Source: Promethearchaeia archaeon
GTDB taxonomy: Archaea > Asgardarchaeota > Lokiarchaeia > Sigyniarchaeales > SOKP01
Reading direction: 5' to 3'
NCBI GenBank assembly: GCA_029856125.1
Contig: JAHQWJ010000119.1
Span: 1-21,393 of the forward strand
Length of the DNA stretch: 21,393 bases
Below, one piece after another: positions 3 through 18,808 of the stretch. Below the pieces are notes generated by a model. That model made no database searches. It saw only the letters and a program-made list of their open reading frames with translations, and was not told the DNA's origin. The translations under genes and the position numbers were made by a program. Within the stretch, counting starts at the first letter, position 1; the number at the start of each line of letters is the position of its first letter.

Positions 3-125
3 TTAAAAAGGTTTAAAATTACTCGAATCGTTTTAGACAAAAGTTGTTATAATGATTCCATTAGCTTATTTAAATCCTATTTGCGAAACAGCGCCATTTG
101 TTTACTAATAGATATTTATCACTGA
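3..125 (+). CDS. Possible 3' end of an upstream gene (partial, unknown product)
   Basis: Frame 3 is open from the window edge to TGA at 123-125 (LKRFKITRIVLDKSCYNDSISLFKSYLRNSAICLLIDIYH) and converges on the GT2 stop. No recognisable motif. Confidence 0.25.
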   Translation, partial: LKRFKITRIVLDKSCYNDSISLFKSYLRNSAICLLIDIYH

Positions 126-991
126 CAAGGATTTTTAATTCTGTAGAGTATTTTAAGAATGGTATTAATCGAATGTTTCATAAAAGAAGTGTTGAATTTA
201 AGTTTGGACCTTTTAAAATAATAGATTGCTATACAGTTAAGAATTGATTTAAATATTTTTAGTAAATCAACATAAGATGTTCCATGCTCGCGTGGTCTGA
301 GGCTTATAGGAACTTCAAGAATTTTTAAATCATTGTGCGCACATTCAAATAAGAATTCAGTAGTAAATCCCATTCCGACATAAATGTTATCACTTAACAG
401 ATTTAAGATTTCTTTCCTAAAACAGCGATATCCGTTTTGGTTATTCCCTATTCTTTGGCGAAATAAAGTCAAAATGCAGATATTAACGCAATATTCTCCA
501 ATTCGGGTAAGAAGTGGAACTTTATAGTCACAATTACCTAAATATCTAGATCCAATCACTAAATCAGCTTTATTCTGAAGTATTGGTTCCATCATTTTCT
601 CGATTTCCTCAGGTTTGTGTTGACCATCGCTATCCAATGTAACAATGATATTTCCAGTTGCATTTTTGAATCCTGTTATCAAAGCGGCTCCATACCCAAG
701 ATTTTTCTGATGCTGCAATATTATTATATTATCTCTATTAATTTCTTTTACTTTAGAAACGCTGTTATCGGTTGAGCCATCATCCACGATAACAATTTCA
801 TACTTTCGGTGATTCGGGATTCTTTCTATAACATCCTTAATTGAGTTTTCTTCGTTATAAACAGGAATAATTACGGATATTAATGAATCAGAGTTGATTA
901 GCCGGGATATGTAAGAATCTGAATCCTCTAACTGACTTTCTTGACATTTTTCTTGGATAGTCTGATTTAGGGGGGCACTTCTCAGATTCAT
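119..991 (-). CDS. Glycosyltransferase family 2, DPM1-like (polyprenol/dolichol-phosphate sugar synthase type)
   Basis: SVIIPVYNEE, IVDDGSTD, NLGYGAAL, DSDGQH (DxD), DLVIGSRY, GYRCF and EVPISLRPREHGTS are hallmark DPM/DPG-synthase-like GT2 motifs. About 35-aa N-terminal extension. Confidence 0.92.
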   Translation of the reverse strand: MNLRSAPLNQTIQEKCQESQLEDSDSYISRLINSDSLISVIIPVYNEENSIKDVIERIPNHRKYEIVIVDDGSTDNSVSKVKEINRDNIIILQHQKNLGYGAALITGFKNATGNIIVTLDSDGQHKPEEIEKMMEPILQNKADLVIGSRYLGNCDYKVPLLTRIGEYCVNICILTLFRQRIGNNQNGYRCFRKEILNLLSDNIYVGMGFTTEFLFECAHNDLKILEVPISLRPREHGTSYVDLLKIFKSILNCIAIYYFKRSKLKFNTSFMKHSINTILKILYRIKNPCQ

Positions 992-3576: not shown

Positions 3577-3937
3577 TCACAAGGAAAGTACAGAACCATA
3601 AAGATGCCCCTTCAAAAGAAACAGAGAATTTGTCTTCTTTAGCATCGTATTTAAATTATTTAGATCTTGATCTGTTAATCTAAAAGTTGAAGTTTGAAAA
3701 TCTCTAAAAGTGGGGCAGTATAATATAACCCGATCATATTTATCTGAGATATTATTTTTTTTCTTTAAAGATTTGATAAATTCTTGATTAGTGTTGAAAA
3801 TTATGTCGTGTCTCAGGTAACCGAGGTTCAATATCTTATTTAATGAGACCTTGAAAGCAGAACATAAAATTTTATGTTCTAGATTGCCTTTAGTTGGAGT
3901 TTATATTGATTGGGATTCAATAAAAAATTGATCCATT
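3577..3937 (-). pseudogene. Internal fragment of a TagF/TagB-like CDP-glycerol glycerophosphotransferase paralogue
   Basis: Minus strand reads WINFLLNPNQY/(frameshift)/TPTKGNLEHKILCSAFKVSLNKILNLGYLRHDIIF...RVILYCPTFRD...LFLLKGHLY. This is collinear with WVRILKLKSYPNQY..TPARGKYEHEILTKAFRV..LDLGYPRND..YAPTFRD..KGHAY of the adjacent intact gene. Both ends are missing. Confidence 0.9.
3859..3880. repeat. Perfect 22-bp palindrome
   Basis: AGAACATAAAA|TTTTATGTTCT read directly from the sequence. Confidence 0.9.
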
Positions 3938-4014
3938 AAAATCTCCCGTTGAGTTATAAAGTGATAAAACATTCTTTAAATTTAATTGAAGAACTGAAAA
4001 TAGCTGAGAATGAT

Positions 4015-5241
4015 ATGAATCTTCAACTCGAAAGATATTATTTTTTGAAAACGAGCAAATTTTACAAGGTATTAAGAGATATAGTTATACCTTTTTGTTT
4101 TAAATTTATTTCTAAGGTTTTTCGAAGCAAAGTTGACGAGAACCTAATTATAATGGGTGCTTACAGTGGAAATTCATATATGGATAATACAAAATATTTA
4201 TTTGAATTTCTAAACAAACGGTCAAATTATAGGGTAGTATGGTTTACGAAATCGCGAGGGTTGCTTGTAGAACTCAGAAATAAAGGCTATAACGTAGTCT
4301 ATATGTTGAGTTTGGATGCAATAAAGCTTCTGAGAAAGGCGAGGTTTATATTTCTTACTCATGGTGTTTACGATGTATTACCTATAGATTTCTCTCCAAA
4401 AACTGAGATAATCATGACTTGGCACGGCACGGTGATTAAAGATATAACCGAAGATTTTGACGCTACTTATTCCTATAAAAAATGGGTTAGAATTCTTAAG
4501 TTAAAGTCTTACCCTAACCAATACATTGATTATGTTTTGACGCCTGCTAGAGGAAAATATGAGCATGAAATTTTAACTAAAGCATTCAGGGTGGATTCCA
4601 CTAAAATACTTGATTTGGGATATCCCAGAAATGACATATTGTTTGATTACAATATAGAATTCAAACAAAAACTAAGAAAGAAATATGGAATTCCCAAAAA
4701 TATTAAAAGAGTGATTTTATACGCCCCAACTTTTAGGGACGCTGGAAGTTTAAGATTTCCCTTTAAAGACAAAGATTTAGAGGATTTAAATACTCTTCTT
4801 AAAAAAAGTGATTCAATTTTTCTATTTAAAGGGCACGCTTACGAAAAGAAAATCAATTTTGGCGAACTTGAATACATCCATTTAGTAAAGAAACCATCAG
4901 AGATACAAGAGCTTTTAATAATCTCAGATTTACTTATTTCGGATTATTCATCGGTTACATTTGATTTTTTACTTACTATGAAACCAGTTATATTATTTCC
5001 CTATGACTTGGAAGTATACGAGAAAGGCAGAGGGCTTCATTATGATTTGAGGGAAATAGCTCCTGGACCAATTGTTTACGATGTAGAAACTCTTCTTGAA
5101 ACGCTTCAAAACATTGAAAAAGTAGAAGTTAAATATAAGAAGATTCGAGAGGAAATTAGTGCCAGGTTTAATAAGTACCACGATGGGAAATCTAGTGAAA
5201 GGCTTTTAACTTTTTTGAATATACCTTTTGATCGTCCATAG
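4015..5241 (+). CDS. CDP-glycerol/CDP-polyol phosphotransferase, TagF/TagB family
   Basis: DNTKYLFE, TWHGT (first catalytic His), GYPRND, ILYAPTFR, KGH (second His), ISDYSSV, DG..S motifs. ATG at 4015 preferred over the TTG at 3949 in the ORF track. Confidence 0.92.
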   Translation: MNLQLERYYFLKTSKFYKVLRDIVIPFCFKFISKVFRSKVDENLIIMGAYSGNSYMDNTKYLFEFLNKRSNYRVVWFTKSRGLLVELRNKGYNVVYMLSLDAIKLLRKARFIFLTHGVYDVLPIDFSPKTEIIMTWHGTVIKDITEDFDATYSYKKWVRILKLKSYPNQYIDYVLTPARGKYEHEILTKAFRVDSTKILDLGYPRNDILFDYNIEFKQKLRKKYGIPKNIKRVILYAPTFRDAGSLRFPFKDKDLEDLNTLLKKSDSIFLFKGHAYEKKINFGELEYIHLVKKPSEIQELLIISDLLISDYSSVTFDFLLTMKPVILFPYDLEVYEKGRGLHYDLREIAPGPIVYDVETLLETLQNIEKVEVKYKKIREEISARFNKYHDGKSSERLLTFLNIPFDRP

Positions 5242-5515
5242 GTAAAAAATATATCTCAAGATAGTATTGAATTATAATAAATTTCTTCTTACTCTCCAAA
5301 GAGTTTTAATAAAATTTTGAATAAGAGAGAGAAGACAATTAAAATTAGGGAAAAAATAATTGAAATACCTAATAAAGTAATGAAAATTTAACCTCCATAC
5401 CTAAATAAAAATTCATAGTATTCTGAATAACTAAAAAAACCTCTGAAAATCAAATTCCTAAATGTTTTTATAGGTAAATGCCTTTCTATAGTTAATTATC
5501 TTTTTAGTTAGTTAT

Positions 5516-6448
5516 ATGCCGAAACAAAAATATTCAAATCTTGAAGATATTAAGGAAATTTATCAGAGTGTAAAAAAAATCGGATATAAAAAAACATCTG
5601 AAAAATTTAACGAGCATATTTCACTTTTAGAACGAATTGTAACACGATATGAAGAAAACAAGGAAGTAAAAGAGATGAAAGTAATTATAATTGCAGCCGG
5701 GATGGGATCCCGATTAAAGGAAATGACAAAATATCTCCCAAAACCATTATTAGAAATCGAAGATGGTAAATCTATTATTGAACGAGAGATTGAAACACTT
5801 CGAGCAGTAGGCTTTGAAGACATTGTAATTGTCCGAGGATATCAGAAAGATAAATTTACACTTTCCAATATTAAATACTATGATAATGATGTGTACACAG
5901 AGAATAACATCTTAGAATCGCTTTTTTACGCAGAAGAGGCTATGGGAGAAGGGTTTATTTGTACCTATGCCGATAGTGTTTTCTCAAAAGATATTTTCCA
6001 AAGAGTATTGGATGCACCCTATGATATTTGTATCGGTGTAGAACCAAATTGGAAAAAGAGATATGAAAATCGTAATGATCATCCTACAGATGAAGCAGAA
6101 TTAGTAAAAATTAAGGCTGGTAAAATAATATCTCTGTCTAAATTCTGTAATCCTGAAGCGTATGATGGAGAATTTATTGGAGTTGCGAAGTTTACTAAAA
6201 AGGGAGCAGAAATCCTGCGAAGAAATTATCATCGAGCAAAAGAAAGCAAATCCTGTCGATTTGCAGAAGGTCAGCGATTTCACGATGCGGTTTCTATCCG
6301 GAAAGCCTATCTTACCGATATGTTTCAAGAACTCATTGATAGAGGATATCCTATACATGCTGTAATGGTAAATCATGGATGGGTTGAAATTGATACCCAA
6401 CAAGATTATGAATATGCCCAAGAATTAATTAGAGATGGAAAAATATAA
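5516..6448 (+). CDS. LicC/PntC-type (phosphocholine/phosphonate cytidylyltransferase family) nucleotidyltransferase with N-terminal HTH-like extension
   Basis: IIIAAGMGSRL...PKPLL, IVRGY, NNILESL, YAD, GEFIGVAKF, WVEIDTQQD motifs. Catalytic domain begins at MKVII (residue 54). Confidence 0.85.
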   Translation: MPKQKYSNLEDIKEIYQSVKKIGYKKTSEKFNEHISLLERIVTRYEENKEVKEMKVIIIAAGMGSRLKEMTKYLPKPLLEIEDGKSIIEREIETLRAVGFEDIVIVRGYQKDKFTLSNIKYYDNDVYTENNILESLFYAEEAMGEGFICTYADSVFSKDIFQRVLDAPYDICIGVEPNWKKRYENRNDHPTDEAELVKIKAGKIISLSKFCNPEAYDGEFIGVAKFTKKGAEILRRNYHRAKESKSCRFAEGQRFHDAVSIRKAYLTDMFQELIDRGYPIHAVMVNHGWVEIDTQQDYEYAQELIRDGKI

Positions 6449-6478
6449 CAAATCAATTTAATAAATGGTTGAAAAATT

Positions 6479-7768
6479 ATGGCTACTAATGAAAATGAAG
6501 TAAAGCAAAAATTAAAGTCATGGAGATTACGAATTTTCTTTACAGTGTGGATCACTTACATGATTTATTATATAGGGCGCGCTAACCTTTCTATTGCAAA
6601 ACCTCTTTTAATGACTGAATTGGGTATTACACCAGCAGTAATGGGGCTTATCGGAACAACTTTTTTTCTTGCGTATGCATCTGGACAATTTATCAACGGT
6701 TTCCTAGGTGATAAAGTTGGAGCTAGAAAATTTATTGCTATAGGTTTGATAGTTTCTTCAGTGATAAATTTATTTATGGGAGTTGCATTTGAATTTATCT
6801 GGCTAGCATTCCTTTTATGGGGATTAAATGGATACTTCCAATCAATGGGATGGGCTCCTTCTGTAAAAACAATAGCAAATTGGCATCCTCCAGAGGAAAG
6901 AGGGAAATGGTCTAGTAGACTTGCCACATCTTATTTACTCGGAGGTGTAGTATCGTGGCTTATAGCCATTCTGATAACTGAAACTTTCAGTTTAAATTGG
7001 AGATTTTCTTTTATTGTTCCCGGTATTATCATGTTTTTTATGGCGATTCATTTTTATCTGCGGGCTAGAAACGCTCCTGAAGAATGTGGGTTACCAACTA
7101 TAGAAGAAGAATGTGAAGGTAAAATTGAATTAGGAGAATGTCGAGATGATGAATTTCTAGGATTTAAATATACATTTGGAAAAGTAATTAAAACGAAAAC
7201 TGTTCTTTTTGCTGCATTTGGATTATTCTGTTTAAATATGGTTAGGTATGGTTTAACCGACTGGCTTCCATTAATAATAGTAACAGAAGGAGAATTTTTT
7301 CATATATGGAAATCCATATTCTATCCCATCGGAGGAGTTATTGGCGTTATTCTTGGAGCTTGGATATCTGATAAATTTGTTGGTAAAAAAAGAATGCCTG
7401 TAATTAGTGTTTTTTTCATATTACTATCGTTAACATTATTTGCGTATACATTACTACCCGCTCTAGATATGATCTTTGGGATTCCCGTATTGTTAGTAAT
7501 AGGAATATTGAACTTTGCCCCTCATGCACTTTTAGTTTCTACGATACCGATGGAATTCAGTACAAGAAAAGCAGCATCTGCCGCAACGGGATTTATTGAT
7601 GGATGTGGTTATATTGGTGCCGCAATTACATCTTTTACGTCAGGAGCTCTAATAGGTGCTGTAGGTTCTGGAGCCGCATTTTTACTCTGGATAGTTGTCG
7701 CATTTGTAGGTGGACTTGTTATGATTGCCGCGTGGAATGCACTTCCTGAGAAAGGAGAATATTTATAA
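6479..7768 (+). CDS. MFS transporter, organophosphate:Pi antiporter family (GlpT/UhpT/PgtP-like)
   Basis: YYIGRANLS (TM1 Arg), GFLGDKVGARK, NGYFQSMGW, ERG, PEECGLPTIEE loop, NMVRYG (TM7 Arg), GAWISDK, AASAATGFIDGCGYIG. About 12 TM segments. Confidence 0.9.
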   Translation: MATNENEVKQKLKSWRLRIFFTVWITYMIYYIGRANLSIAKPLLMTELGITPAVMGLIGTTFFLAYASGQFINGFLGDKVGARKFIAIGLIVSSVINLFMGVAFEFIWLAFLLWGLNGYFQSMGWAPSVKTIANWHPPEERGKWSSRLATSYLLGGVVSWLIAILITETFSLNWRFSFIVPGIIMFFMAIHFYLRARNAPEECGLPTIEEECEGKIELGECRDDEFLGFKYTFGKVIKTKTVLFAAFGLFCLNMVRYGLTDWLPLIIVTEGEFFHIWKSIFYPIGGVIGVILGAWISDKFVGKKRMPVISVFFILLSLTLFAYTLLPALDMIFGIPVLLVIGILNFAPHALLVSTIPMEFSTRKAASAATGFIDGCGYIGAAITSFTSGALIGAVGSGAAFLLWIVVAFVGGLVMIAAWNALPEKGEYL

Positions 7769-7820: not shown

Positions 7821-9071
7821 TTAAAACTTATTAAAAATATCTATTAACTTAGGCGTTAAATTGTCCCAAGTATAGTTTGATAGCTGCTTTGGATCGATTT
7901 CCAAGTTAATTTGGTTAGATGCCAATCTATCTATCAGAGAAATGAATTTCTTGACACCCGCTTCGTGATTATTAACCGGAATTGTGAAACCTAAATTGTT
8001 TTCTTTTAGAAATCTAGCCGTAAAGGAATCCACCCTGCCTAAATAGACTATTTTTTTTCTCATGCTCAGGTAATCCCAAACCTTAAAACTAATTGTTGGG
8101 TAGTCAAAGTTTTCTCCAACATGTAATGTAAGAGTTGATTCCGCTATTTTTTTTAGACATTCATTACGCGGAATAAATCCGTTTAAACTAAAATACTCTG
8201 AAACATTATATTTTTGAATTATATTTGATAAATATTCGAAATTGTATCTTCCAAATATATTAATTTCTAAGGGAACTCCTTTTAATTTCCCTAAATCTTT
8301 GACAGAGGATATAATTTTTATAAGCGGTTTGAGGTCTCTTAGACCATACAATTTTCCTGTGAATGTTAAAATTAATTTGTTAGTTGGAGGAAAAACGACA
8401 TCAGTTGTTAAAGAAGAACTCATATCTAATCCGTTTGGTAAAACAAAAACCTTTTCTTCTTGTATGATTGAAGGAAAAGATTTTAGTAGATATTCTTTTA
8501 ACCCTTCACTTATAGCGATAATAGCGTCAGAGGTTTTCAATACCTTCTTGTCAATTTTATTATAATTCTTTTTTGTAAATTCGGAAACATTTCCTAAGAA
8601 ATATGGATTATCTGACCAAGGATCTCTGTATTCAGTTATGAGTGGGATTTTAAAGATTTTTTTTAGCAGGTATCCTAATGCCAACGAAAAAAAGGGAGGC
8701 GCGGAAGTATAGATTGTTCTAATATGATTCTTTCTTATAATTTGGCAGCTTTTAAGGAAACTTAACGGCAACCAATGGAAAAAAAGAAAGACATTAAAAA
8801 GTTCCTTCAAAAATGATATTTTTTTAACACTCGAAGCCATACCGCTTGAAGAAAAACTTAAATTGTAAACTTGAGTGTTTTTAATCAAGGGTGAGTCAAC
8901 AGCTTTTAAAAGTTCTTTGTCGATTGGAGCGTTTTTATTATTTTTTGCACTTACAACAAAGATTTTATAATCAGATTCTATTAATCTTCTTGTGAATTCT
9001 GTAGCTCTATTACTAAGGATATTGCTATAAGGGGGAAAATGATATGATATGTATAATATTTCTTTAGTCAT
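7821..9071 (-). CDS. Glycosyltransferase family 4 (GT-B)
   Basis: ILYISYHFPP, TSAPP, EYRDPW, VLPNG, TFTGKLY, FKVWDYL, C-terminal YTW. Confidence 0.85.
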   Translation of the reverse strand: MTKEILYISYHFPPYSNILSNRATEFTRRLIESDYKIFVVSAKNNKNAPIDKELLKAVDSPLIKNTQVYNLSFSSSGMASSVKKISFLKELFNVFLFFHWLPLSFLKSCQIIRKNHIRTIYTSAPPFFSLALGYLLKKIFKIPLITEYRDPWSDNPYFLGNVSEFTKKNYNKIDKKVLKTSDAIIAISEGLKEYLLKSFPSIIQEEKVFVLPNGLDMSSSLTTDVVFPPTNKLILTFTGKLYGLRDLKPLIKIISSVKDLGKLKGVPLEINIFGRYNFEYLSNIIQKYNVSEYFSLNGFIPRNECLKKIAESTLTLHVGENFDYPTISFKVWDYLSMRKKIVYLGRVDSFTARFLKENNLGFTIPVNNHEAGVKKFISLIDRLASNQINLEIDPKQLSNYTWDNLTPKLIDIFNKF

Positions 9072-9210
9072 TGCTTTACAGACAAATTCAATTTTTAATC
9101 AATTTCTGATTATATATATTAAAATCTTCAAATGGTAAAGAATAATAATAAGAGAAATAATAAAATTTTAAAAAATATTATTATATTCAACTTAATTTTT
9201 CTTTTGGCAA

Positions 9211-11253
9211 ATGAATTATCAAAAAGTACTCAAATCGTTAAAAAAAGTTTCATATTTCAATATAATTAACTACTATAAACCAATATTAGAAAAGAAGTTA
9301 AATTCGATTTTTCTTAATAAAAATAAAGTATATTTAAGGAATTCTAGTAAGTCAAATGATATTTTAAAAAAAAATTTTGGAAAAAATCTAGATTTTGATG
9401 AATTTAACAGAGTTTTTTTTAATAAAAGGATATTTAGTTATTCAAATAGTAGAGAGAAGTCAAAAATAATTGAAGAATTAAACCAAAATCACTTCAATTC
9501 GATAAATAAGTATATAAAATTAGCAAATCAGGTTATTTCAAAAGAATTTATTATTTTTGAAAAAAATTATAAGTTTGAAGACAAAATTGATTGGCATTAT
9601 AGCTTTTTTGATGATTTCAGGTGGAAACTTGAGAAATCAGACAAAATAAATATTAGACCAAGATATAAAAGTCATTTTATTGATGTAAAATATGTTTGGG
9701 AATTAAATCGACACCAATTTCTTCCATATTTAGGATTTGCTTATTTTATTACTAAAGATGAGAAATATGCAATAGAATTTAAAAAATTAATTCTTGATTG
9801 GATTGAAAAAAATCCTCCTTTATATGGAATAAATTGGGTTTCAGGATTGGAGATATCCCTAAGGTTAATTTCTTGGATTTTAACACTATTTTTCTTCAAA
9901 GAATCAAAAGAAATTAACGATAAACACTTCTTTTCAAAAATATTTAAAGTTCTGTTTCAACATGCTTATTATCTTAGATATTTCTATGCAAAGCGTTCAT
10001 TAAATCATACTGTTGGGGATCTTTTTGGGGTTTATTTATTCTCTAAAATATTCGAAGAGATTAAACTACTTAAAAAATGGGAAAAAAAATTCTTTAAAAA
10101 ATTAAAAAAACAAATAATCTTGCAAATAAGATCCGATGGTGTTGATATAGAGCAATCTGTTAATTATCATAAGTTTGTATTGGAATTTTTCTCTCTTTTT
10201 GTTATTTTAAATCCTAAACTTATTGATGAATCAGAGGGGGTTTTAATCGAAAAGATGTTTGATTATTTACTTCACTCTATCAAACCCGATTCTCTTTTTC
10301 CTTTAATTGGGGATGTTGATGATGGGAAGGTATTATTCCTCACCAATATTAAAGATAATAAGTTTTTTGATTTGTTAAATGTGGGTTGTATCTTATTTAG
10401 AAAAAAAGAGTTAAAATTCATTACTAAAAAAATATCCCCAATTTCAATCTTATTATTTGGTGAAAAAGGAATTGAAACGTTTAACGAATTAGAATCAATT
10501 GAACCAAACAAAAAATTTGAATATTTTGATAGGTCGGGATATTTTATTATAAGAAATAATTGGACAGAAAATGCTACTTACTTGTTTGTAGATTATGGAA
10601 GATTTGGTGCCTTAGGTGCTGCTCACTCTCATAGTGACATTACTAATATTATCTTCTCTTATAATGGAAAGAATATTTTTATTGATTCTGGAAATTATTC
10701 CTACAATAGATCGTGGAAAGAGAGAAAATATTTCCGAAGCAGTAAGGCACATAACATTTTATCCATTAACAACAAAAACCAAGCCCAATCAATAGGTTGG
10801 TTTAGTTGGGAGAAGAAACCAAAAATTAAAAGAAAAGTGAATTTAAAAGATTCTGTAATTGAATTGAGTTGCCTCCATAATGGGTATCAAGGATTTTTAG
10901 TTAAAAGAAAAATTATAACAAACAGAAACCTTGATGAACTAATCATTGAAGATACTGTATTTCAAAGCAGTAATAAATTCGATGAAAAGCCATCTGATAT
11001 TGATCTATACTTTCATTTTGATAAAGACATCAATTTAAAAGTTGAAAAAAATTCATTGCAAATTGATAATGAATTATTATTTACTGTAAAATCAAATCAA
11101 CAATTTAGTATGAATATTCAAAAATCATTCTATTCTCCGGCTTATGGGCAAAAATATGAAAACAATGCATTGGTTATTCATTTAAGGCATTCTTTTAAGA
11201 AAAATGATAAAATACAAATTATTTCTAAAATAAATCCAATAAAATCTCATTGA
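9211..11253 (+). CDS. Heparinase II/III-like protein (alginate-lyase-like N domain plus Hepar_II_III domain)
   Basis: DVKYVWELNRHQF, NPPLYGINW, LEISLRLISW, NH, DGVDIEQSVNYH, GDVDDG, AHSHSD, IDSGNYSY, AHN, YSPAYG. No signal peptide visible. Confidence 0.9.
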   Translation: MNYQKVLKSLKKVSYFNIINYYKPILEKKLNSIFLNKNKVYLRNSSKSNDILKKNFGKNLDFDEFNRVFFNKRIFSYSNSREKSKIIEELNQNHFNSINKYIKLANQVISKEFIIFEKNYKFEDKIDWHYSFFDDFRWKLEKSDKINIRPRYKSHFIDVKYVWELNRHQFLPYLGFAYFITKDEKYAIEFKKLILDWIEKNPPLYGINWVSGLEISLRLISWILTLFFFKESKEINDKHFFSKIFKVLFQHAYYLRYFYAKRSLNHTVGDLFGVYLFSKIFEEIKLLKKWEKKFFKKLKKQIILQIRSDGVDIEQSVNYHKFVLEFFSLFVILNPKLIDESEGVLIEKMFDYLLHSIKPDSLFPLIGDVDDGKVLFLTNIKDNKFFDLLNVGCILFRKKELKFITKKISPISILLFGEKGIETFNELESIEPNKKFEYFDRSGYFIIRNNWTENATYLFVDYGRFGALGAAHSHSDITNIIFSYNGKNIFIDSGNYSYNRSWKERKYFRSSKAHNILSINNKNQAQSIGWFSWEKKPKIKRKVNLKDSVIELSCLHNGYQGFLVKRKIITNRNLDELIIEDTVFQSSNKFDEKPSDIDLYFHFDKDINLKVEKNSLQIDNELLFTVKSNQQFSMNIQKSFYSPAYGQKYENNALVIHLRHSFKKNDKIQIISKINPIKSH

Positions 11254-11354
11254 AGTTCAAACAATTAGTTTTACTAAAATATTTTTTTTACAATATATTT
11301 TATTACACAATAAAGCATCAGAAATATACCAACTACTTTTAAGTCAATAAAAAA

Positions 11355-13538
11355 ATGAAAAAATTGGAAATTAGTAAAAATGGTCAAGTAACTTTACAAG
11401 AAGCCCGAGAGCCCCAAATTGAAACCAAAGGGGTAATAGTTCATACTAGTTTTGCTTTAATAAGTTCTGGAACAGAATTATCTGTAATTAAATGGAATAG
11501 ATTAATGAATTTACCAATTTATAAACAAATCATTAGATCTAAACATATTCGAAAGCGGATTTTTGCGGAATTAAAAAAGAATACTATAAAAAACGTATTT
11601 AATTTATTTAAAATCTATAAAGAGAGGAGTTCTTATAAAAATTATTCTAGAACATCTAATAGTTCAACACCAATAGGTTATAGTTGCTCTGGAATTGTGG
11701 GAGAATCAAATATAGAAAATCTTCAAATTGATAATAGAGTAGCTTGTGCCGGTTCCTATCACGCTGAAAAAATATTTTCTCCTAAAAATTTGACTGTCAA
11801 AATACCAGATAATGTCAGTCTTGAAGAAGCCGCTTTCGCTACATTGGGTGCAATAGCTTTACAGGGTGTTCACCGAGCAGGTATTAAGCAAGGTGAAAAT
11901 GTTGGAATAATTGGAACTGGTTTAATAGGGTTGATTACTGTTGGATTAGCGAAAGCTGCAGGTGCGAAAGTATTTGCTTTTGACTTAATCAATAACCGGT
12001 TAAATTTAGCAAAAAAATTAGGAGCTGATATTTTAATCAATCCTAACTATCACAACTCAAAATTAGAAGTAGATAGACAGACAGATAGTAAGGGTTTAGA
12101 TTCTATTATCATATGTGCCTCATCAACAACTAATAAACCATTGGAAGACGCTGCTGAATTAATCCGCGATAAGGGTAAAATCGTTATGTTGGGAGCCTTC
12201 CCAATAAATGTTGATCGTAATAAACTTTATTATAAAGAAGTTGATTTACTAATCTCACGGTCCTATGGTCCAGGACGGTATGATGAATCTTACGAATACG
12301 AAGGATTTGATTACCCAAAAAAATATATCCCCTGGACAGAACAACGTAATATGGAATACTTTTTAAACCTAATATCAGAAAAGAAAATAGATGTTAAATC
12401 CTTAATATCAGAAATTATTCCTGCAGAGAATGCTAATGATGCTTATAAGAAATTAGAAATGAATCCAGCAAAAAATATTGCCATTTTATTAAAATTTGAA
12501 AAAGAGGATACTCCACAAATAATCGCTCAAAAAGAAGAGATATTACACAAAGAAATACGTAAAAAATCGTTAATTGGATTAATTGGATGTGGTTCTTTTG
12601 CTCAAGGAGCTCATCTTCCTTTCCTTTTGTCCAATCCACATTGTAAAATAAAGGCAATCTCCACTAATTCCCAGAAAACAGCAGATTTTTGTAAACGGAC
12701 GTACAAACCGGAATATACGACAACCAATTACAAGAAAATTTTGAAAGATCCTGATATTGACACAGTTTTCATCTACACAAGACACGATTCACATGCAAAA
12801 TTCACAATTGATGCAATTAAATCAGGAAAAAATGTCTTTGTTGAAAAACCAATGGGTTTAACGCTAGAAGAGTGTCAAAGGGTATACGACGTAGTGAAGG
12901 CCTCTGAAATGAATTATGTTATTGGCTTTAATAGAAGATACAGTCCTTTAATTAAAATAGCTAAGGATTTATTGCACGATGTTTCGAACCCAATTATAAT
13001 CAATTATCGAATTTCAAGTCAATTCATACCCGGAAGTCACTGGGTCTTCGACCCTAAAGTAGGAGGGGGACCAATTATTGGCGAATTTTGTCATTTTATT
13101 GATTTAGTATTATTTCTAATAAATTCTAAACCAGTTGAGGTAATTGCTCGTGGAGGGGCTATGAGTCATAAAAATACAACAGTTTTTGATAGCTGTGTAG
13201 TTTTACTAAAGTTCGAAAATGGTTCTATAGCGAATTTAGTTTATACAGATTTAAATGGCCCAAAAATGTCAAAAGAACGAATAGAAATTTATTCAGGAGA
13301 TTCAGCAATTATTATTGATGATTTTATAACATTAAATACTAGTGGTTTTGACTTTGGAAATTTACTATTAAGTAAGCAGGATAAAGGTCATAAGAATGAG
13401 TTAGAAAATATTATTCAGACGAATTTAGGATTTAAAGACTCTTTAGTAGGAATAGATGATGCTATGAAATCAATGGAAATTGTATTTAAAACGATTGAAT
13501 CCATAAAAACAAATAAAACCATTCAAATTAATAACTAA
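11355..13538 (+). CDS. Bi-domain oxidoreductase (MDR-type dehydrogenase plus Gfo/Idh/MocA domain)
   Basis: LISSGTE, PIGYSCSG, GTGLIG, SRSYGPGRYD..YE, WTEQRN in the N domain. IGCGSFA, TRHDSHA, FVEKP, GFNRR, GEFCHFID in the C domain. Confidence 0.92.
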   Translation: MKKLEISKNGQVTLQEAREPQIETKGVIVHTSFALISSGTELSVIKWNRLMNLPIYKQIIRSKHIRKRIFAELKKNTIKNVFNLFKIYKERSSYKNYSRTSNSSTPIGYSCSGIVGESNIENLQIDNRVACAGSYHAEKIFSPKNLTVKIPDNVSLEEAAFATLGAIALQGVHRAGIKQGENVGIIGTGLIGLITVGLAKAAGAKVFAFDLINNRLNLAKKLGADILINPNYHNSKLEVDRQTDSKGLDSIIICASSTTNKPLEDAAELIRDKGKIVMLGAFPINVDRNKLYYKEVDLLISRSYGPGRYDESYEYEGFDYPKKYIPWTEQRNMEYFLNLISEKKIDVKSLISEIIPAENANDAYKKLEMNPAKNIAILLKFEKEDTPQIIAQKEEILHKEIRKKSLIGLIGCGSFAQGAHLPFLLSNPHCKIKAISTNSQKTADFCKRTYKPEYTTTNYKKILKDPDIDTVFIYTRHDSHAKFTIDAIKSGKNVFVEKPMGLTLEECQRVYDVVKASEMNYVIGFNRRYSPLIKIAKDLLHDVSNPIIINYRISSQFIPGSHWVFDPKVGGGPIIGEFCHFIDLVLFLINSKPVEVIARGGAMSHKNTTVFDSCVVLLKFENGSIANLVYTDLNGPKMSKERIEIYSGDSAIIIDDFITLNTSGFDFGNLLLSKQDKGHKNELENIIQTNLGFKDSLVGIDDAMKSMEIVFKTIESIKTNKTIQINN

Positions 13539-13561
13539 TTATACTTTTAGAGTTAATTAAA

Positions 13562-14389
13562 ATGTTGATAAATACTGATGATATAATCGATCCTGTTCAA
13601 ATTGAAAATAAGTATGCGATTTTTTCTACTTTTAAAAATGATGTTGTTTTTCACAGAGAAAACATTAATACTCCTATTTTCTGCGGAGGTATTATTAAAT
13701 CTATTAGTCAAAATGTATATAACTTTAAAATTAATGAGCATATTGGATATATTTCATGTAAACAAAGTCCTGATTTAACTTTATCTACTAATCAGATTGT
13801 AAAAATTGCTATTATCAATAATGAAAAACTAATCGCAGTATTGCCATATGCCTCTTATGCTATGAAAATTCTTAGACTTGTAAACCCGAGTTTAAATCAG
13901 AGTATTGCTATTGTTGGGATAAATTTTTTCTCAATTTTATTAGAGAGGTTAATCAAATTATCTGGAGCAAATGTGTCTTTAATTGATTCTAAAGATATTT
14001 CAAAAATTATGCTTGAATTTGATAAGGAAGCTAAAAAATTGAATGGTGCTTCGATTAATACCATAATTTATGACCCATTAACACCTAAAGTGAAAGAATT
14101 TATTTCTAATATAAATTGCAGACATAAAATTGATTTAAACAGCATATCTGTTTATGACAAAGGACTAAATGATAATAATTATATTAAAGGTGTTAAATAT
14201 CCATATTCATATATAAGATGGGACTTTAAAAGAAATTTGGAATATTTCCTTCATTTAATTGACACTAAAAAAGTATTATTAGATTTCTTTGAAGTTCACG
14301 TTATAGAAATAAGTCAATTGGATGAAATGAAGCGAAAAATTAGTGAATTTAGAGAAAATTCTTTAATTCTATTTAAATTATCAATTTAA
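13562..14389 (+). CDS. Degenerate MDR-like protein homologous to the N-terminal domain of the upstream oxidoreductase
   Basis: By-eye alignment: PIFCGGII~PIGYSCSGIV; IAIVGINFFSILLERLIKLSGANV~VGIIGTGLIGLITVGLAKAAGAKV; KYPYSYIRWDFKRNLEYFLHLIDTKKV~DYPKKYIPWTEQRNMEYFLNLISEKKI. Confidence 0.8.
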   Translation: MLINTDDIIDPVQIENKYAIFSTFKNDVVFHRENINTPIFCGGIIKSISQNVYNFKINEHIGYISCKQSPDLTLSTNQIVKIAIINNEKLIAVLPYASYAMKILRLVNPSLNQSIAIVGINFFSILLERLIKLSGANVSLIDSKDISKIMLEFDKEAKKLNGASINTIIYDPLTPKVKEFISNINCRHKIDLNSISVYDKGLNDNNYIKGVKYPYSYIRWDFKRNLEYFLHLIDTKKVLLDFFEVHVIEISQLDEMKRKISEFRENSLILFKLSI

Positions 14390-14413
14390 TTAGACCCATT
14401 TATTCAATAATGA

Positions 14414-15661
14414 TTATATTACTTTCTGTAAGATATCAATAAAATCGTAATATCTCTTTTCCCATAGAAATTCATTAATAACTCTATTGTATCCATGCTT
14501 TCCCATTTCAGTTCTTATTTCTTCTTTGTCGAATAAATATAACATCTTCTCAATTAGATCCTCTAAATTATTTGGTTTTACTAATAATCCTGATTTACCA
14601 TTTTTAACCGCGTCTCGAATTCCACCTGAATATGATCCAATAACGGGAACTTTATTGTAATTTGCTTCTAAAAATACTAACCCAAAGCCCTCAATTGAAT
14701 CATTTGTTGTAATTGAGGGCATAACAAAAATATCTGCTAATTTGTATAATTCATTTCTAATACTATTCTCGCATTCTCCAAAAAATTTTACTGTATCTTC
14801 CAATTCTAATTCTTTAGTTAAATCTTTCAAATATTTTGTAGAGGTCCCTTTACCAACTGAAAAATATTTAATATCTGAATTTGGTCGCTTTTCTTTAATA
14901 ATTTTTATAGCTCTAATCACTAAATCAAATTTTTTCCTTGGAACATGCCATCCAACGCTTAAAATTATAAATGTTTTTTCTGAAATATTATATTTTTTTC
15001 TTAATTCCTCTCTTGATTCATTTATTGTGTAATCCTCTGGAAAGATTGCTAAAGGTAAAATTTCAATTTTCCTTTCATTTATATTATGAATTCTTTGAAA
15101 GAAAAATTTAGTTGTATCTCCTAAAACTATTACTTTGTTAATATTTTTAAAATAAATTGTCTTCAAATGAAATGTTTTCTCCAACGGCTTGTTTTTTAAA
15201 AAGTCATTTCCATAGGTAAAAGAAATAGCTTCTTTATTAAGTAGCTTTGAGAGGAAAAAAATTAAAGGAAGGGTTTTAGAAGGGAAACCCCCAACTATAA
15301 TGTCCACATCTAATTTTCTTAAATAAGGTATGATGTTAACAACATTATTAAAGACGATAACTAGATTTCTTGGATTAATCCATAAATAAAAAATTATCTT
15401 TAATTTATCTTTTAATGATGTGTTTTTATCTCTAAGTAATTTTTTCATCGATATAAAGAGGTAATAAAAAAATTGCTTATTTATTTTTAAATGCTTTATA
15501 CTTACAATTAGATTATTATAAACTCGATTGCTTTTATGATAAGGATTGAATACATATAGTTTATGATTTTTGTTTTGAAAAGCTTTACATAATGAATTCA
15601 AATGATGACTGATTCCACCCTTTAATGGATAAAACGCATCTGTTATTAAAGCAATCCTCAG
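14414..15661 (-). CDS. Glycosyltransferase family 4 (GT-B), probable CTG start
   Basis: SVGWHVPRKKFD, DIFVMPS, EGFGLVFLEA, PVIGSYSGG. The frame extends upstream of the track's TTG (15601) to LRIALITDAFYPLKGGI starting at CTG 15661. Confidence 0.88.
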   Translation of the reverse strand: MRIALITDAFYPLKGGISHHLNSLCKAFQNKNHKLYVFNPYHKSNRVYNNLIVSIKHLKINKQFFYYLFISMKKLLRDKNTSLKDKLKIIFYLWINPRNLVIVFNNVVNIIPYLRKLDVDIIVGGFPSKTLPLIFFLSKLLNKEAISFTYGNDFLKNKPLEKTFHLKTIYFKNINKVIVLGDTTKFFFQRIHNINERKIEILPLAIFPEDYTINESREELRKKYNISEKTFIILSVGWHVPRKKFDLVIRAIKIIKEKRPNSDIKYFSVGKGTSTKYLKDLTKELELEDTVKFFGECENSIRNELYKLADIFVMPSITTNDSIEGFGLVFLEANYNKVPVIGSYSGGIRDAVKNGKSGLLVKPNNLEDLIEKMLYLFDKEEIRTEMGKHGYNRVINEFLWEKRYYDFIDILQKVI

Positions 15662-15672
15662 CCCTCTCTCTT

Positions 15673-17313
15673 TTATAAGATTCTTTTCAGGAATTTCAAT
15701 AACCTCTTAATAACGCGATATGGGAATTTATCAGTACTTAGTAATGCTTCTAAAAATTCAATTTCTTTGCGAGAAAAAATTTTAAAAAGTATATTTAAAA
15801 GAAAATACATTAGTAAGAACGATATTAAACTTAAAACACTTAAATTCTTAAAAAGTAATAAATTGAGATTTTGGAGAACATTTATTCGTATCTCTCTGAA
15901 TAATATATCTTCTAAAATAACAGCTAAAAATAAAGAAATAAAAAATATTAAATATTGGAAAAATATTTTATTGATTTTTATTTTGACATTTCCAATTTTA
16001 ATGCTTATTAACAGCTGAATTAGAAATACAATGAATTTTGAGATTATTAATCCAATAATAGCGCCAACTATACCATAAAAAACAATTCCAATAAAGAATA
16101 AGGGTATAATTATAAATAAATTAATAGTTGTTAATATCGGCAGAATTTTAATTTTATTTTTTGCATTTAATAGTGGTATAAGGATATTTCCTAAAACAGA
16201 AAAAATGATCGTTATTAAGTATAATTTAACAATTGTTGAATAAATTAAGTATGATTCTCCATAAACCAATATTAGAAAAAAATCAGTTAAAATGTATAGA
16301 GCCCCTGAAATTAATAACATCAAAAACAGCGAATATTTAAAGGTCATATTATATATTTGAGTAATTTGGTTGTGTTCTTTTTTAACATCTAAACTGGAAA
16401 AGGATGTGATTAAGGGGTTGGAAAAGGAAGATGCTGCTGTTAGAGAGATATGGGAATAATATTTTGAGATAGTAAAACCAGTTATTGTACTTAAGGGTTC
16501 AAATCCACCTATTATAGGAGTCTGAATTTGTTTCCACGTCTCATTTAAGAATATGTTAATACTTAAAGGAGTTCCATATTTTGTTAATTTTGAAAGAATT
16601 TTTTTAAAAGAGTCCTTTGGTTCTCCAGTAGGTTTAATATTAAAATAAATTTTTATGAAAATTAGACTACTTACTAAAAATGGAATTAAGTATGATAATA
16701 AGTTTAGTAACGCAATTATTTCAAGATTAGTTATTCCAAATATTAAGCATATTATAAGAGCCGAAATATAAAAAGAAAATTTTAATAGGGTTAAGAGGAA
16801 AATTAGTTTATATTTAAATAAACCTTGGTAAATAGAATCTAATAAGGTACTTAATCCCATTATAAAAATAAGTGGTGATAAAAGAAATAAAAGGTTGGTG
16901 TAACCTAATAAATACATAGAAAAAAAGGATTGCAATAAATAAAAAATAATCACACTTATGAAGAAAATAATTAATGCAAATAATGTTTTAAGATAAAGAC
17001 AGGCTTTTATCATCCTTTTTAAATTATTATTTTGATTCAAAGCAACGTATCTTGGAATATAATAATTCAATGAGAAAGTTAGAGCTGGAGGAAAAAATGA
17101 TAAAATTAGTGAAACAATGTTAATATAGGCCATTGCTAATAGGAAAAAACCCCATAATTCTTGCGAAATTAGTCTAGCCATAAAAAAAGAAATAATAATT
17201 TGAAAGATAAAAATTCCATAACTATTGAATAAAGAGTAAAATGCACTTTTAGCAAATTTTCTATGATCTGTGCTAATAATTCCGACTTTCTCAGAATCTT
17301 TCATATTCCTCAT
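15673..17313 (-). CDS. Oligosaccharide flippase (Wzx/MOP superfamily)
   Basis: About 14 TM segments; FFMARLISQELWG, YYIPRY, KYGTPL, LVYGESY motifs. Confidence 0.85.
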   Translation of the reverse strand: MRNMKDSEKVGIISTDHRKFAKSAFYSLFNSYGIFIFQIIISFFMARLISQELWGFFLLAMAYINIVSLILSFFPPALTFSLNYYIPRYVALNQNNNLKRMIKACLYLKTLFALIIFFISVIIFYLLQSFFSMYLLGYTNLLFLLSPLIFIMGLSTLLDSIYQGLFKYKLIFLLTLLKFSFYISALIICLIFGITNLEIIALLNLLSYLIPFLVSSLIFIKIYFNIKPTGEPKDSFKKILSKLTKYGTPLSINIFLNETWKQIQTPIIGGFEPLSTITGFTISKYYSHISLTAASSFSNPLITSFSSLDVKKEHNQITQIYNMTFKYSLFLMLLISGALYILTDFFLILVYGESYLIYSTIVKLYLITIIFSVLGNILIPLLNAKNKIKILPILTTINLFIIIPLFFIGIVFYGIVGAIIGLIISKFIVFLIQLLISIKIGNVKIKINKIFFQYLIFFISLFLAVILEDILFREIRINVLQNLNLLLFKNLSVLSLISFLLMYFLLNILFKIFSRKEIEFLEALLSTDKFPYRVIKRLLKFLKRIL

Positions 17314-17400
17314 CCAATATCTTAGAAATAAGAGAAATTAACATATAAATTAAAAATTTTTATTTGGGCTTTTATTATATTTTAAATCTCCAGCTTATTT

Positions 17401-17433
17401 TTCAGCAAATTTTAGCAAATTTTATCAAATTTT
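17401..17433. repeat. 10-bp tandem repeat, three copies
   Basis: TTCAGCAAAT TTTAGCAAAT TTTATCAAAT (TTT) in the divergent intergenic region. Confidence 0.75.
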
Positions 17434-17458
17434 TTTAATTCATTTAATTAGATTATTT

Positions 17459-18808
17459 ATGGAAAAAGTCATATTTTTAGCTTTAGATGGTCTTAGTTGG
17501 AATATGATTGATGAGCTCCTTGCTGTCAACCGACTTAAAAATTTTCGAAAGATCATCGATACGGGGGTTTCCACTGTTATGAGAGCAGAAGGCTTTTTAA
17601 GTTCTCCGAAAATTTTCTGCTCTATTTTTACCGGAAAAAAAGTAGAAAAGCATGGAATAAGAGATTTTTATTCTAAAGAAGAAGATTTAAAAACCGAACA
17701 AATTTGGGATTTATTAAACGAAAAAGGCTTCAGAGTCGGCGTTTATAGACCGTTGAGTGTTTGGTCTGCGAAAAAATTTGACGGTTTTTGCGTACCCAAC
17801 CCCTTACTTTTAGAGAAAAATACTTATCCTCAAAGTCTAAATTTTATTGGTGAATTAGATAAAAAAGCACGATCAGAGAAGTACTCTATATCTTTTATGA
17901 TTAAAATCTTTTGGAAACTTATGACATTTGGTTTTCCATTAACACAGCTTCTTAAAATAATAAAAAGAAGTATATTGTTAGCTTTTAAAAAAGGCTTGGA
18001 AGAAAGGATGTATCTTTTAAAAGAATTAGAATTAATAATTCATACAAATTTGTATTACAGGTTATTAAAAAAATATTCCTTAGATTTTTCTGTATTTTTT
18101 GATTATTCATTTGATACTCTTGGTCATATATATTGGAGAAAAAAAGGAGAGGAGTCGAAATATTCTGATGTTGTTCCTAATACTTATAGAATTATCGATA
18201 AATTCGTGGGGAAAGTAAATGACTATGCTAAAAAGAACAATTTTCATTTAATTATCTGCTCTGATCATGGATTTGAAAAAAAGGAAAAGCAAAATCAAAG
18301 AAGTTTTCGAGCGATCAATATTTTAAATCTATTAAGAGAACTTGGTTTTTATTACGACATTTACGGCATCTACATGACAGAAAGCGTAGTTTTTCGGTTG
18401 AGACCTGACTCACTAGGTTCGTTAAGAGATTTCGAAAACGCAATCGAGTCGATTAGGTGCGAAGGAGTTGAACTTTTTACTATCAAATCTTACGAAAAAA
18501 AGTTAATACTTAGAATAAACGATGTTTTTGGAGATAATAAAAGTTTAAAAGTCGATTTACCAAATAAGAAAACCGTGAGTTTAGATTCTATCATCGATTT
18601 TAACCCCGGACACACGGGTTCTCATTCTGAGGACAACGGCGTTTTTATATTTAATGGACCTCGCATTAAAGAAGGTTTTAGAATTAAGGAGATAACTCCC
18701 TATGACGTAACACCAACAATTTTGGCATTGAGTGATCAACCAATACCTTCTGATGTTGATGGTAGAGTTTTAAAAGAATTTTTTAAAGAAAAACCAGAAC
18801 TTATTTGA
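17459..18808 (+). CDS. Alkaline phosphatase superfamily protein (nucleotide pyrophosphatase/phosphodiesterase-like)
   Basis: LALDG, SSPKIFCSIFTG...HGI (nucleophile region), DTLGH, CSDHG, GSH, DVTPTIL, DGRVL. Confidence 0.88.
   Translation: MEKVIFLALDGLSWNMIDELLAVNRLKNFRKIIDTGVSTVMRAEGFLSSPKIFCSIFTGKKVEKHGIRDFYSKEEDLKTEQIWDLLNEKGFRVGVYRPLSVWSAKKFDGFCVPNPLLLEKNTYPQSLNFIGELDKKARSEKYSISFMIKIFWKLMTFGFPLTQLLKIIKRSILLAFKKGLEERMYLLKELELIIHTNLYYRLLKKYSLDFSVFFDYSFDTLGHIYWRKKGEESKYSDVVPNTYRIIDKFVGKVNDYAKKNNFHLIICSDHGFEKKEKQNQRSFRAINILNLLRELGFYYDIYGIYMTESVVFRLRPDSLGSLRDFENAIESIRCEGVELFTIKSYEKKLILRINDVFGDNKSLKVDLPNKKTVSLDSIIDFNPGHTGSHSEDNGVFIFNGPRIKEGFRIKEITPYDVTPTILALSDQPIPSDVDGRVLKEFFKEKPELI

Follow-up and report, generated by a model that had tools for sequence, protein, structure and literature searches.

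The 21.4-kb window analysed here (the whole stretch of DNA under study) is AT-rich, with a GC content of 22-35%, and corresponds to contig C119 of a draft genome of 3.69 Mb in 153 contigs that is 99.1% complete. It carries three co-oriented genes, encoding a TagF-like transferase, a nucleotidyltransferase (NTase) of the LicC/PntC type, referred to as NTase-A, and an OPA-type transporter of the major facilitator superfamily (MFS), which an earlier note on this DNA had read as a system for import, CMP-activation and transfer of a phosphorus-bearing small molecule in a probable archaeon. All three genes are intact, with the last two 30 bp apart, and the flanks consist of glycan genes according to Pfam, so that the trio indeed lies inside a glycosylation cluster; likewise, none of tagD, tarI, licA, licD and pepM is present in the window. 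The host can be specified as a Lokiarchaeial Asgard archaeon on the basis of NTase-A, which shares 85% identity with its counterpart in Promethearchaeum syntrophicum MK-D1 and 78% with the one in Lokiarchaeum ossiferum, and of its best 120 homologs, among which every one with an organism name belongs to the Asgard archaea. The features of the locus are the following.

4015-5241, plus strand: predicted TagF/TarF-like CDP-/CMP-donor phosphotransferase, stand-alone, 408 aa (PF04464), no predicted transmembrane segment
5242-5515, plus strand: spacer between the TagF-like and NTase-A genes, with a TATA-like element (TTTTTATAGG) about 40-50 nt upstream of ATG 5516
5516-5674, plus strand: 53-aa N-terminal extension of NTase-A, possible helix-turn-helix (HTH), found in the forms of 307-319 aa
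5675-6448, plus strand: catalytic core of NTase-A, predicted CTP:phosphonate/organophosphate cytidylyltransferase of the LicC/PntC type (COG1213)
6479-7768, plus strand: OPA-family MFS antiporter of an NTase-linked subfamily, predicted importer of a phosph(on)ate head group in exchange for phosphate (match to GlpT 1pw4, 2.2e-41)

The three proteins encoded at the locus

The open reading frame (ORF) of the TagF-like transferase spans 3949-5241, and the in-frame ATG at 4015, which yields 408 aa compared with 406-412 aa in the homologs, is likely the true start. The protein covers positions 7-364 of the 367 positions of the Pfam profile Glyphos_transf (PF04464; 4e-77), matches the solved TagF of Staphylococcus epidermidis (3l7i; 1.3e-35), and carries histidines at the H444 and H584 columns (S. 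epidermidis numbering; WHGT and KGH motifs), which we take to be the catalytic and the pyrophosphate-binding residue, respectively, while the SDYSSV motif is also kept. By its full-length profile match, the solved relative and both histidines, it belongs to the TagF/TarF/TagB family, within which its equivalog scores are 175 bits for TarF, 111 for TarL and 67 for TarB, as compared with cutoffs of 550, 1000 and 500. An 89% identical ortholog is found at locus L092 in the same gene order, and the spacer behind the TagF-like gene of the window is 81% identical to its L092 counterpart, with the highest conservation immediately upstream of the NTase start, which suggests that this conserved block is promoter-like.

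NTase-A (310 aa; 5516-6448, plus strand; Pfam NTP_transf_3/NTP_transferase) has LicC (1jyk; 9.7e-16) and subsequently a PntC-AEPT fusion (6pd1; 2.9e-8) as its best solved relatives, and it contains the G-x-G-S-R-L nucleotide-binding signature (AAGMGSRL); signature and best solved match together place it among the LicC/PntC-type cytidylyltransferases. Of 16 longer relatives with 36-47% identity, 8 are fusions to phosphoenolpyruvate (PEP) mutase (PepM) and 1 is a fusion to an aminotransferase. In a phylogenetic tree, in which PepM fusion was used as the functional marker, NTase-A groups with two PepM-fused clades and the aminotransferase-fused form in a single family (SH-aLRT 96), the internal backbone of the tree being weakly supported. 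Moreover, the active-site motif of NTase-A is YSDI, as in the PepM-fused forms and in contrast to the IDADN of LicC. The column of LicC D105 and PntC E104 was considered as a sign of a non-amine substrate and was dropped as non-discriminating, since the whole family, including the aminotransferase- and PepM-fused forms, has YSDI there. Look-ups of NTase-A and of the MFS protein in the ESM Atlas returned generic names only.

The 53-aa extension of NTase-A is kept in the forms of MK-D1, L. ossiferum, Hermod and Hod, is missing from the 254-aa forms, and gave no match in a Pfam search. In the bacterial relative P0121, XRE-type HTH domains are fused to the same NTase, which makes a regulatory, DNA-binding role of the extension plausible by analogy.

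The MFS protein matches the OPA/PgtP subfamily model TIGR00881 (6.7e-68), and its fold and the paired arginines of transmembrane (TM) segments TM1 and TM7 assign it to the OPA family (TC 2.A.1.4; GlpT/UhpT/PgtP). In an alignment with GlpT, residues R45, R269, Y38, Y42, Y76, Y270 and Y393 are unchanged, and K46, K80, H165, Y266, N162 and G389 are replaced by A, Q, Y, N, A and D, respectively; of these positions, N162, Y266 and Y393 presumably have roles in the GlpT substrate site. Across 46 aligned NTase-linked MFS proteins (28 from Asgard archaea, 18 from other phyla), K80Q and H165Y occur in all 46, the K46 position is never basic, R269 is arginine in 46/46, and R45 is arginine in 44/46 with lysine in 2 non-Asgard proteins. 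The protein is thus not a GlpT proper, as both K80 and H165 are replaced throughout and its TIGR00712 score is 189 bits against a cutoff of 633. K80 and H165 are substrate contacts in GlpT (PMC4598623), and their invariant replacement makes it unlikely that the MFS protein carries glycerol-3-phosphate. The shared signature and the retained phosphate site rather argue for a distinct OPA subfamily with one common substrate class.

A comparable pattern has been described for AepP of Pseudomonas putida, a GlpT-like importer of 2-aminoethylphosphonate (AEP) in which the phosphate-binding residues are kept and the glycerol contacts are lost (Murphy et al. 2021, PMC8316502). The MFS protein resembles this OPA carrier in both respects, a likeness judged by the described residues, but AepP is coupled to the catabolic phnWAY and phnWX genes, whereas the MFS gene is coupled to an NTase that would act anabolically.

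Conservation and partners of the NTase-A-MFS pair

A scan of one genome per species yielded 317 NTase-A relatives, and 80 loci were taken for neighbourhood analysis, with annotation by tblastn using the window proteins and the phosphonate genes of L. ossiferum. The MFS gene is located within 1 kb (≤1 kb) of NTase-A in 53 of the 80 species loci, and 16 loci with enough flank are without it. All 28 informative Asgard loci contain the pair, which overall occurs in at least 8 phyla; outside the Asgard archaea it is present in Bathyarchaeia, Chloroflexota, Planctomycetota, Saccharibacteria and others. The intergenic distance of 30 bp in the window corresponds to 1 bp in MK-D1 and to an overlap in L. 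ossiferum. By these data NTase-A and MFS form a tightly conserved, operon-like two-gene module. Among 201 sampled Asgard genomes (completeness ≥80%) the pair was found in 10, including 2 of the 18 from the window's genus, which makes it an accessory module; the candidate view of NTase-A as a housekeeping Asgard enzyme was rejected on the same frequencies.

The earlier note had treated the three genes as one unit, and this stood for the pair only, the whole trio being kept in a single TagF lineage (the window, L092, an ENA contig, G111 and L024). The TagF-like gene stands beside the pair in 3 of 31 Asgard species loci, and outside this lineage a distant TagF occurs beside the pair in MK-D1. In bacteria and other archaea the company of the pair differs. 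It is accompanied by a second NTase, a NUDIX hydrolase and LicD in a locus from Dehalococcoidia, by a CDP-alcohol phosphatidyltransferase within a nonulosonic-acid cluster in Saccharibacteria, by a Na/Pi cotransporter-PhoU fusion in Planctomycetota (L078:6938-8599), and by NUDIX and pst ABC transporter/PhoU genes in a Heimdall genome. The partner transferase thus differs between lineages, and every type works with a head group activated by CMP or CDP, which fits a supply module that feeds different transferases. The pst and PhoU neighbours hint at a link to the phosphate balance of the antiport.

Several further observations concern the pair and its neighbours. In Dehalococcoidia (L065:9194-13491, L049, L045, L040), tandem NTase-A paralogs of about 40% identity precede the MFS gene; L065 also has a NUDIX gene between the NTase and MFS genes, and then a LicD gene. 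The commonest Asgard neighbour, beside the pair in 18 of 31 loci (for example L003:13238-14782 and L091:8326-9831), encodes a protein of about 500 aa of the AP superfamily (sulfatase/phosphodiesterase-like); it is nearly always located directly upstream of NTase-A, and downstream of the pair in MK-D1. Neither a TM segment nor a signal peptide is predicted for the MK-D1 protein, which has a single weak match to LtaS (2.5e-4) among solved structures, and this neighbour could be a transferase or a phosphonate-ester hydrolase. A tblastn search of the window's genome gave no match for the MK-D1-type AP-superfamily gene or for NUDIX. Finally, the pair is mosaic: NTase-A of the window is 85-90% identical to those of MK-D1 and L092, but the MFS protein only 58-64% to theirs, and it is 74-79% identical to MFS proteins of PepM-type clusters (comparison with L003, L092 and L091), which suggests recombination between the two genes.

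PepM linkage, cassette exchange and donor supply

In L. ossiferum the pair stands divergent from four phosphonate genes, encoding a CTP-transferase-PepM fusion, Ppd, an iron-dependent alcohol dehydrogenase (Fe-ADH) and a 241-aa NTase, and in MK-D1 the same four genes are found 300 kb from the pair, so that both cultured organisms carry the pair as well as a de novo cassette. The order AP-superfamily gene, NTase-A, MFS, PepM-NTase fusion, Fe-ADH, NTase, Ppd recurs in 14 of 31 Asgard loci, and PepM is also close to NTase-A relatives in the Chloroflexota and in a single unclassified bacterial metagenome-assembled genome (MAG; L075). The combination of PepM, Ppd and Fe-ADH leads to 2-hydroxyethylphosphonate (HEP), as known from the chemistry of Fom1/Fom2/FomC and PhpC (PMC6697681, PMC13576164).

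The relation between the two cassettes is most evident at the slot between the TagF-like gene and a gene for a glycosyltransferase (GT) of family GT4. At locus L093 the order is GT2, membrane protein, TagF, a cassette of PepM-NTase fusion, Fe-ADH, NT238 and Ppd, and then GT4, heparinase and oxidoreductase. The window and L092 have this order with NTase-A and MFS where L093 has the PepM cassette, and the window order of TagF, NTase-A, MFS, GT4, heparinase-like and oxidoreductase genes is also that of the clusters around the closest TagF homologs (83-92% identity). The slot is contiguous in the window. The L093 proteins are identical to those of the window at 54% (TagF), 72% (GT2), 40% (membrane protein), 56% (GT4), 59% (heparinase) and 73% (oxidoreductase), and those of L092 at 90% (NTase-A) and 64% (MFS), with no PepM within the L092 contig stretch examined.

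TagF-like genes (E ≤1e-60) occur in 14 of the 201 Asgard genomes, all of the window's family, and 9 of these 14 also encode PepM. This association is significant by Fisher's exact test (p = 2e-6; 8e-5 within the family), with related genomes not being independent. TagF directly abuts a PepM cassette in six loci (G162, G114, G198, G117, G045 and L093) in at least 4 arrangements. Within the window's genus, G114 and G162 carry TagF and PepM without NTase-A, and the window's genome and G111 carry TagF and NTase-A-MFS without PepM; the two supply routes are mutually exclusive in this genus, where G114 and G162 stand in for the L093 genome as to the absence of the pair. In the TagF tree the four import-linked TagFs form one clade (100/100) that sits among PepM-linked and unlinked TagFs, and one PepM-linked clade branches deeper, so that the import-linked arrangement looks like one derived lineage. 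Two side observations concern these TagF-like genes: in G111 (L090:12157-16615) genes for APS kinase, a sulfatase/phosphodiesterase-like protein and ATP sulfurylase come after the TagF-like gene, suggesting that the glycan of this organism may also be sulfated, and L107 (G198:C10) and L108 (G132:C2) contain 820-aa ORFs with two tandem TagF-like domains, as well as single TagF-like genes around the PepM cassette.

The occurrence of the pair inside complete PepM clusters, which have NTases of their own, allows for a role other than import: the MFS protein might not feed the NTase at all, the pair might export a phosphonate or exchange it for phosphate with NTase-A acting on an endogenous metabolite, and in the window it might be left over from a PepM cluster. 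The reversibility of OPA carriers, the neighbouring pst/phoU genes in the Heimdall genome and the Na/Pi cotransporter-PhoU fusion in Planctomycetota, and the NUDIX hydrolase that often follows the pair are in line with such a role. We nevertheless consider it quite improbable, as both genes of the window are intact, with a conserved promoter-like spacer, the above identities to L092 and no signs of decay; the pair persists in the 7 of 10 sampled pair-bearing Asgard genomes where PepM was not found; and uptake is the simplest explanation for the tight coupling of a transporter to an activating enzyme of the cytoplasm.

The earlier note had found neither pepM nor tagD in the window, and the same holds for the 99.1%-complete genome. 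PEP mutase (PF13714), LicD (PF04991) and a LicA-type choline kinase (PF01633) gave no match in the host genome, and tblastn searches of it with Ppd, NT241 and the Asgard PepM were negative as well. The best score for the TagD equivalog TIGR01518 in the host genome was 38 bits against a cutoff of 165, and the best score for IspD was 22.7 bits, which is also below the cutoff. Recognised phosphonate catabolism was not found in the host either, since PhnJ gave no match and PhnX none above the cutoff. As none of TagD, IspD, LicD, choline kinase and PepM was found, NTase-A is the only enzyme in evidence that could provide the TagF-like transferase with a small-molecule donor linked to CMP or CDP.

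This last point bears on whether the TagF-like gene and the pair are functionally connected at all. They could be mere neighbours in a mosaic glycan island, with the transferase drawing on another donor source and the pair serving another transferase or lipid head-group synthesis. The 275-bp spacer with its own promoter-like element separates them, TagF accompanies the pair in only the 3 of 31 Asgard species loci mentioned above, three pair-bearing genomes of the phylum sample (Heimdall-type G063, G100 and G118) lack both TagF and PepM, and many TagF-like genes have neither cassette nearby. Against this stand the genome search, which found no other CDP- or CMP-linked polyol or phosphonate donor enzyme, the retention of the TagF-pair linkage in two arrangements within one TagF clade, and the equivalent position of TagF beside the PepM cassette in L093, and we give mere proximity only a slender chance.

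A proposed salvage route and its setting

Taken together, the locus probably serves a surface-glycan decoration whose activated head-group donor is scavenged, not synthesised. The outline of import, CMP-activation and transfer given in the earlier note fits what was found, namely a co-conserved pair, no kinase or other enzyme for a CDP-linked donor, neighbours that are CMP/CDP-dependent transferases, and a replaced PepM slot. In the version that we tentatively favour, the MFS protein (6479-7768) would take up a small environmental phosphonate in exchange for phosphate, HEP or a close analogue being the most likely substrate. NTase-A (5516-6448) would convert this phosphonate with CTP into a CMP-phosphonate, a step for which no kinase would be needed because the imported solute already carries phosphorus. 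The TagF/TarF-like enzyme (4015-5241), whose donor would be a CMP-phosphonate as read from its PepM linkage, would then move the phosphonyl group onto a hydroxyl of a glycan made by the neighbouring glycosyltransferases, with release of CMP. The analysis establishes what the genes are, which catalytic and binding residues are kept, that the module is conserved, that it takes the position of the PepM cassette, and that the de novo pathway went undetected in the host genome; the direction of transport, the use of CTP, the identity of the substrate and the acceptor are what we infer here from sequence, and to the route as a whole, with a small phosphonate and probably HEP as its substrate, we assign slightly less than an even chance.

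Several points weigh against this phosphonate route. The host genome is a draft in 153 contigs, and the import-linked TagFs are only about 54% identical to the PepM-linked ones and form their own clade, which leaves room for a shift in donor specificity. When cassettes are exchanged in glycan loci, the chemistry is often altered and not preserved. The presence of the pair beside a complete PepM cassette in 14 of 31 Asgard loci implies that it is not simply a substitute for synthesis, and it may supply a second component or act otherwise. OPA antiporters are reversible. The absence of PepM from 7 of 10 sampled pair-bearing Asgard genomes and from most bacterial loci would be equally well explained by a common phosphate ester. 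Finally, COG1213 NTases have diverse substrates, including phosphocholine, AEP, inositol-1-P, phosphoglutamine and phosphoglycerate (PMC12275187).

The same logic of import, activation and transfer could operate with a phosphate ester as the head group, in which case the swap would mean that different surface chemistries take turns at the slot. The head group might then be glycerol phosphate (teichoic-acid-like), 2- or 3-phosphoglycerate, phosphoethanolamine or phosphocholine. The TagF-family enzymes characterised to date use CDP-glycerol or CDP-ribitol, and TarF and TarL are the best models for the transferase of the window; the top model of the MFS protein is the OPA/PgtP subfamily, and its pocket-region residue D374 (aspartate in 38/46) could pair with an amine. 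CpgD, a COG1213 NTase, makes CDP-glycerate (PMC12275187), the majority of pair-bearing genomes is without PepM, and the pair adjoins LicD or a CDP-alcohol phosphatidyltransferase in bacteria. On the other side, glycerol-3-phosphate is opposed by the replacement of GlpT K80 and H165 in 46/46 proteins together with the altered N162 and Y266, the fusion proteins closest to NTase-A contain PepM or an aminotransferase, the TagF-like genes of the Asgard family associate with and abut PepM cassettes, and the pair is found beside PepM repeatedly and in several phyla. A phosphate ester as the head group is regarded as unlikely, though worth keeping in view. As to the two versions that the earlier note had left side by side, the teichoic-acid-like one with glycerol phosphate is disfavoured by K80Q/H165Y and by the association with PepM that the TagF-like family and the NTase family have in common, and the phosphonoglycan version, with its putative substrate, is favoured.

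The proposed phosphonate route shares elements with several known systems and coincides with none of them. In the Pnt (phosphonyl tailoring) pathway, which consists of PepM, Ppd, optionally AEPT, PntC and a LicD-like transferase (Rice et al. 2019, PMC6697681), a LicC-related cytidylyltransferase likewise makes a CMP-phosphonate for surface glycans or lipids, and NTase-A shares a family with PepM- and aminotransferase-fused NTases. Unlike in Pnt, however, neither PepM nor Ppd was found in the window's genome (relatives carry both), an OPA antiporter is coupled to the NTase, the transferase is TagF-like and not LicD-like, and the Asgard cassettes carry Fe-ADH, for the HEP route, instead of AEPT. 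The Lic pathway of Streptococcus pneumoniae and Haemophilus (LicB permease, LicA kinase, LicC and LicD) also combines scavenging, CTP-dependent activation by a LicC-fold enzyme and transfer to a surface polymer, but the host genome yielded no kinase of the LicA type, no permease of the LicB type and no LicD, the solute would bear phosphorus at import, and the active-site motifs differ as described above. The locus is neither a Lic nor a Pnt pathway, since LicA, LicD, PepM and Ppd are missing. Wall teichoic acid synthesis by TagD/TarD and TagF/TarF/TagB offers a TagF-family transferase with both histidines, the nucleotide-binding motif and a TarF-like size. It differs in that the host is an archaeon with no TagD equivalog found, that the NTase is of another fold and that the TagF family here is associated with PepM, and the locus is not a teichoic acid pathway, as TagD is lacking and IspD scores below its cutoff. 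Lastly, in the Fom1/FomC/Fom2 front end of the fosfomycin pathway, and likewise in the four-gene HEP cassette of Asgard archaea, PepM, Ppd and Fe-ADH yield HEP, which is then cytidylylated. This Asgard cassette adjoins NTase-A-MFS in L. ossiferum and many Asgard MAGs, but the window's genome is without the entire cassette and has kept only the transporter/activator module and the transferase.

A large part of the dissolved organic phosphorus in the sea consists of phosphonates, and to our knowledge their uptake has so far mainly been known as a catabolic route for phosphorus or nitrogen. In the literature searched there was no account of a PntC-type NTase with an OPA carrier coupled to it, of phosphonate genes from Lokiarchaeia, or of an anabolic salvage route from phosphonate import to surface decoration. 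HEP is reported to be abundant in marine polysaccharide-bound organic matter (PMC13576164). More broadly, Asgard archaea of the Lokiarchaeial family could decorate their surface glycans with HEP via TagF-like phosphonyl transferases, some of them, including the host, having given up C-P synthesis for salvage by an OPA antiporter (K80Q/H165Y) and a CTP:phosphonate cytidylyltransferase; we regard this as possible, yet doubtful. On this view the TagF-like enzymes might even build teichoic-acid-like poly-HEP chains, as HEP has a hydroxyl of its own. If true, the transporter and cytidylyltransferase would constitute a module for anabolic phosphonate salvage into surface decoration, the TagF family would be extended to phosphonyl transfer, and a first functional handle on Asgard envelope chemistry would be available. 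Organisms without pepM could then bear surface phosphonate, so that counts of pepM would underestimate phosphonate-bearing microbes, and the pair would mark phosphonate scavengers in Chloroflexota, Planctomycetota, Saccharibacteria and other phyla. The invariant MFS signature (K80Q/H165Y) provides a simple marker for searching other genomes.

The remaining features of the window are mainly further glycan genes.

119-991, minus strand: GT2 (Pfam), with a 72% identical ortholog in the same order in L093
1351-3258, plus strand: 635-aa polytopic membrane protein, for which hydropathy predicts at least 10 TM segments, with a 40% identical ortholog in the same order in L093
3577-3876, minus strand: TagF-like remnant (pseudogene fragment), with PF04464 positions 146-237 (2e-12) at 3601-3876 and an 84-aa ORF
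7821-21271: downstream glycan genes, encoding GT4, heparinase II/III-like, ADH_zinc+GFO oxidoreductase, a 275-aa ORF, GT1, flippase-like, AP-superfamily Phosphodiest protein, methyltransferase and GT4 (Pfam)

A scan of the window with Rfam matched no family, and a scan for sigma-70 promoters equalled the shuffled expectation, this consensus not being applicable to an archaeon. The AP-superfamily protein of the window gave no match in a search of solved structures. The 635-aa membrane protein, orthologs of which (40-42% identity) adjoin TagF in L093 and G162, had no match in Pfam or NCBIfam and is a candidate glycan polymerase or ligase. The TagF-like remnant is 43-50% identical to the corresponding segment of TagF homologs and divergent from the intact gene, and it is probably a relic of a rearrangement at the slot. 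Finally, the 275-aa ORF (13562-14389) has no family match and is a genuine conserved gene of the cluster, as a 77% identical ortholog occupies the same position in L092.

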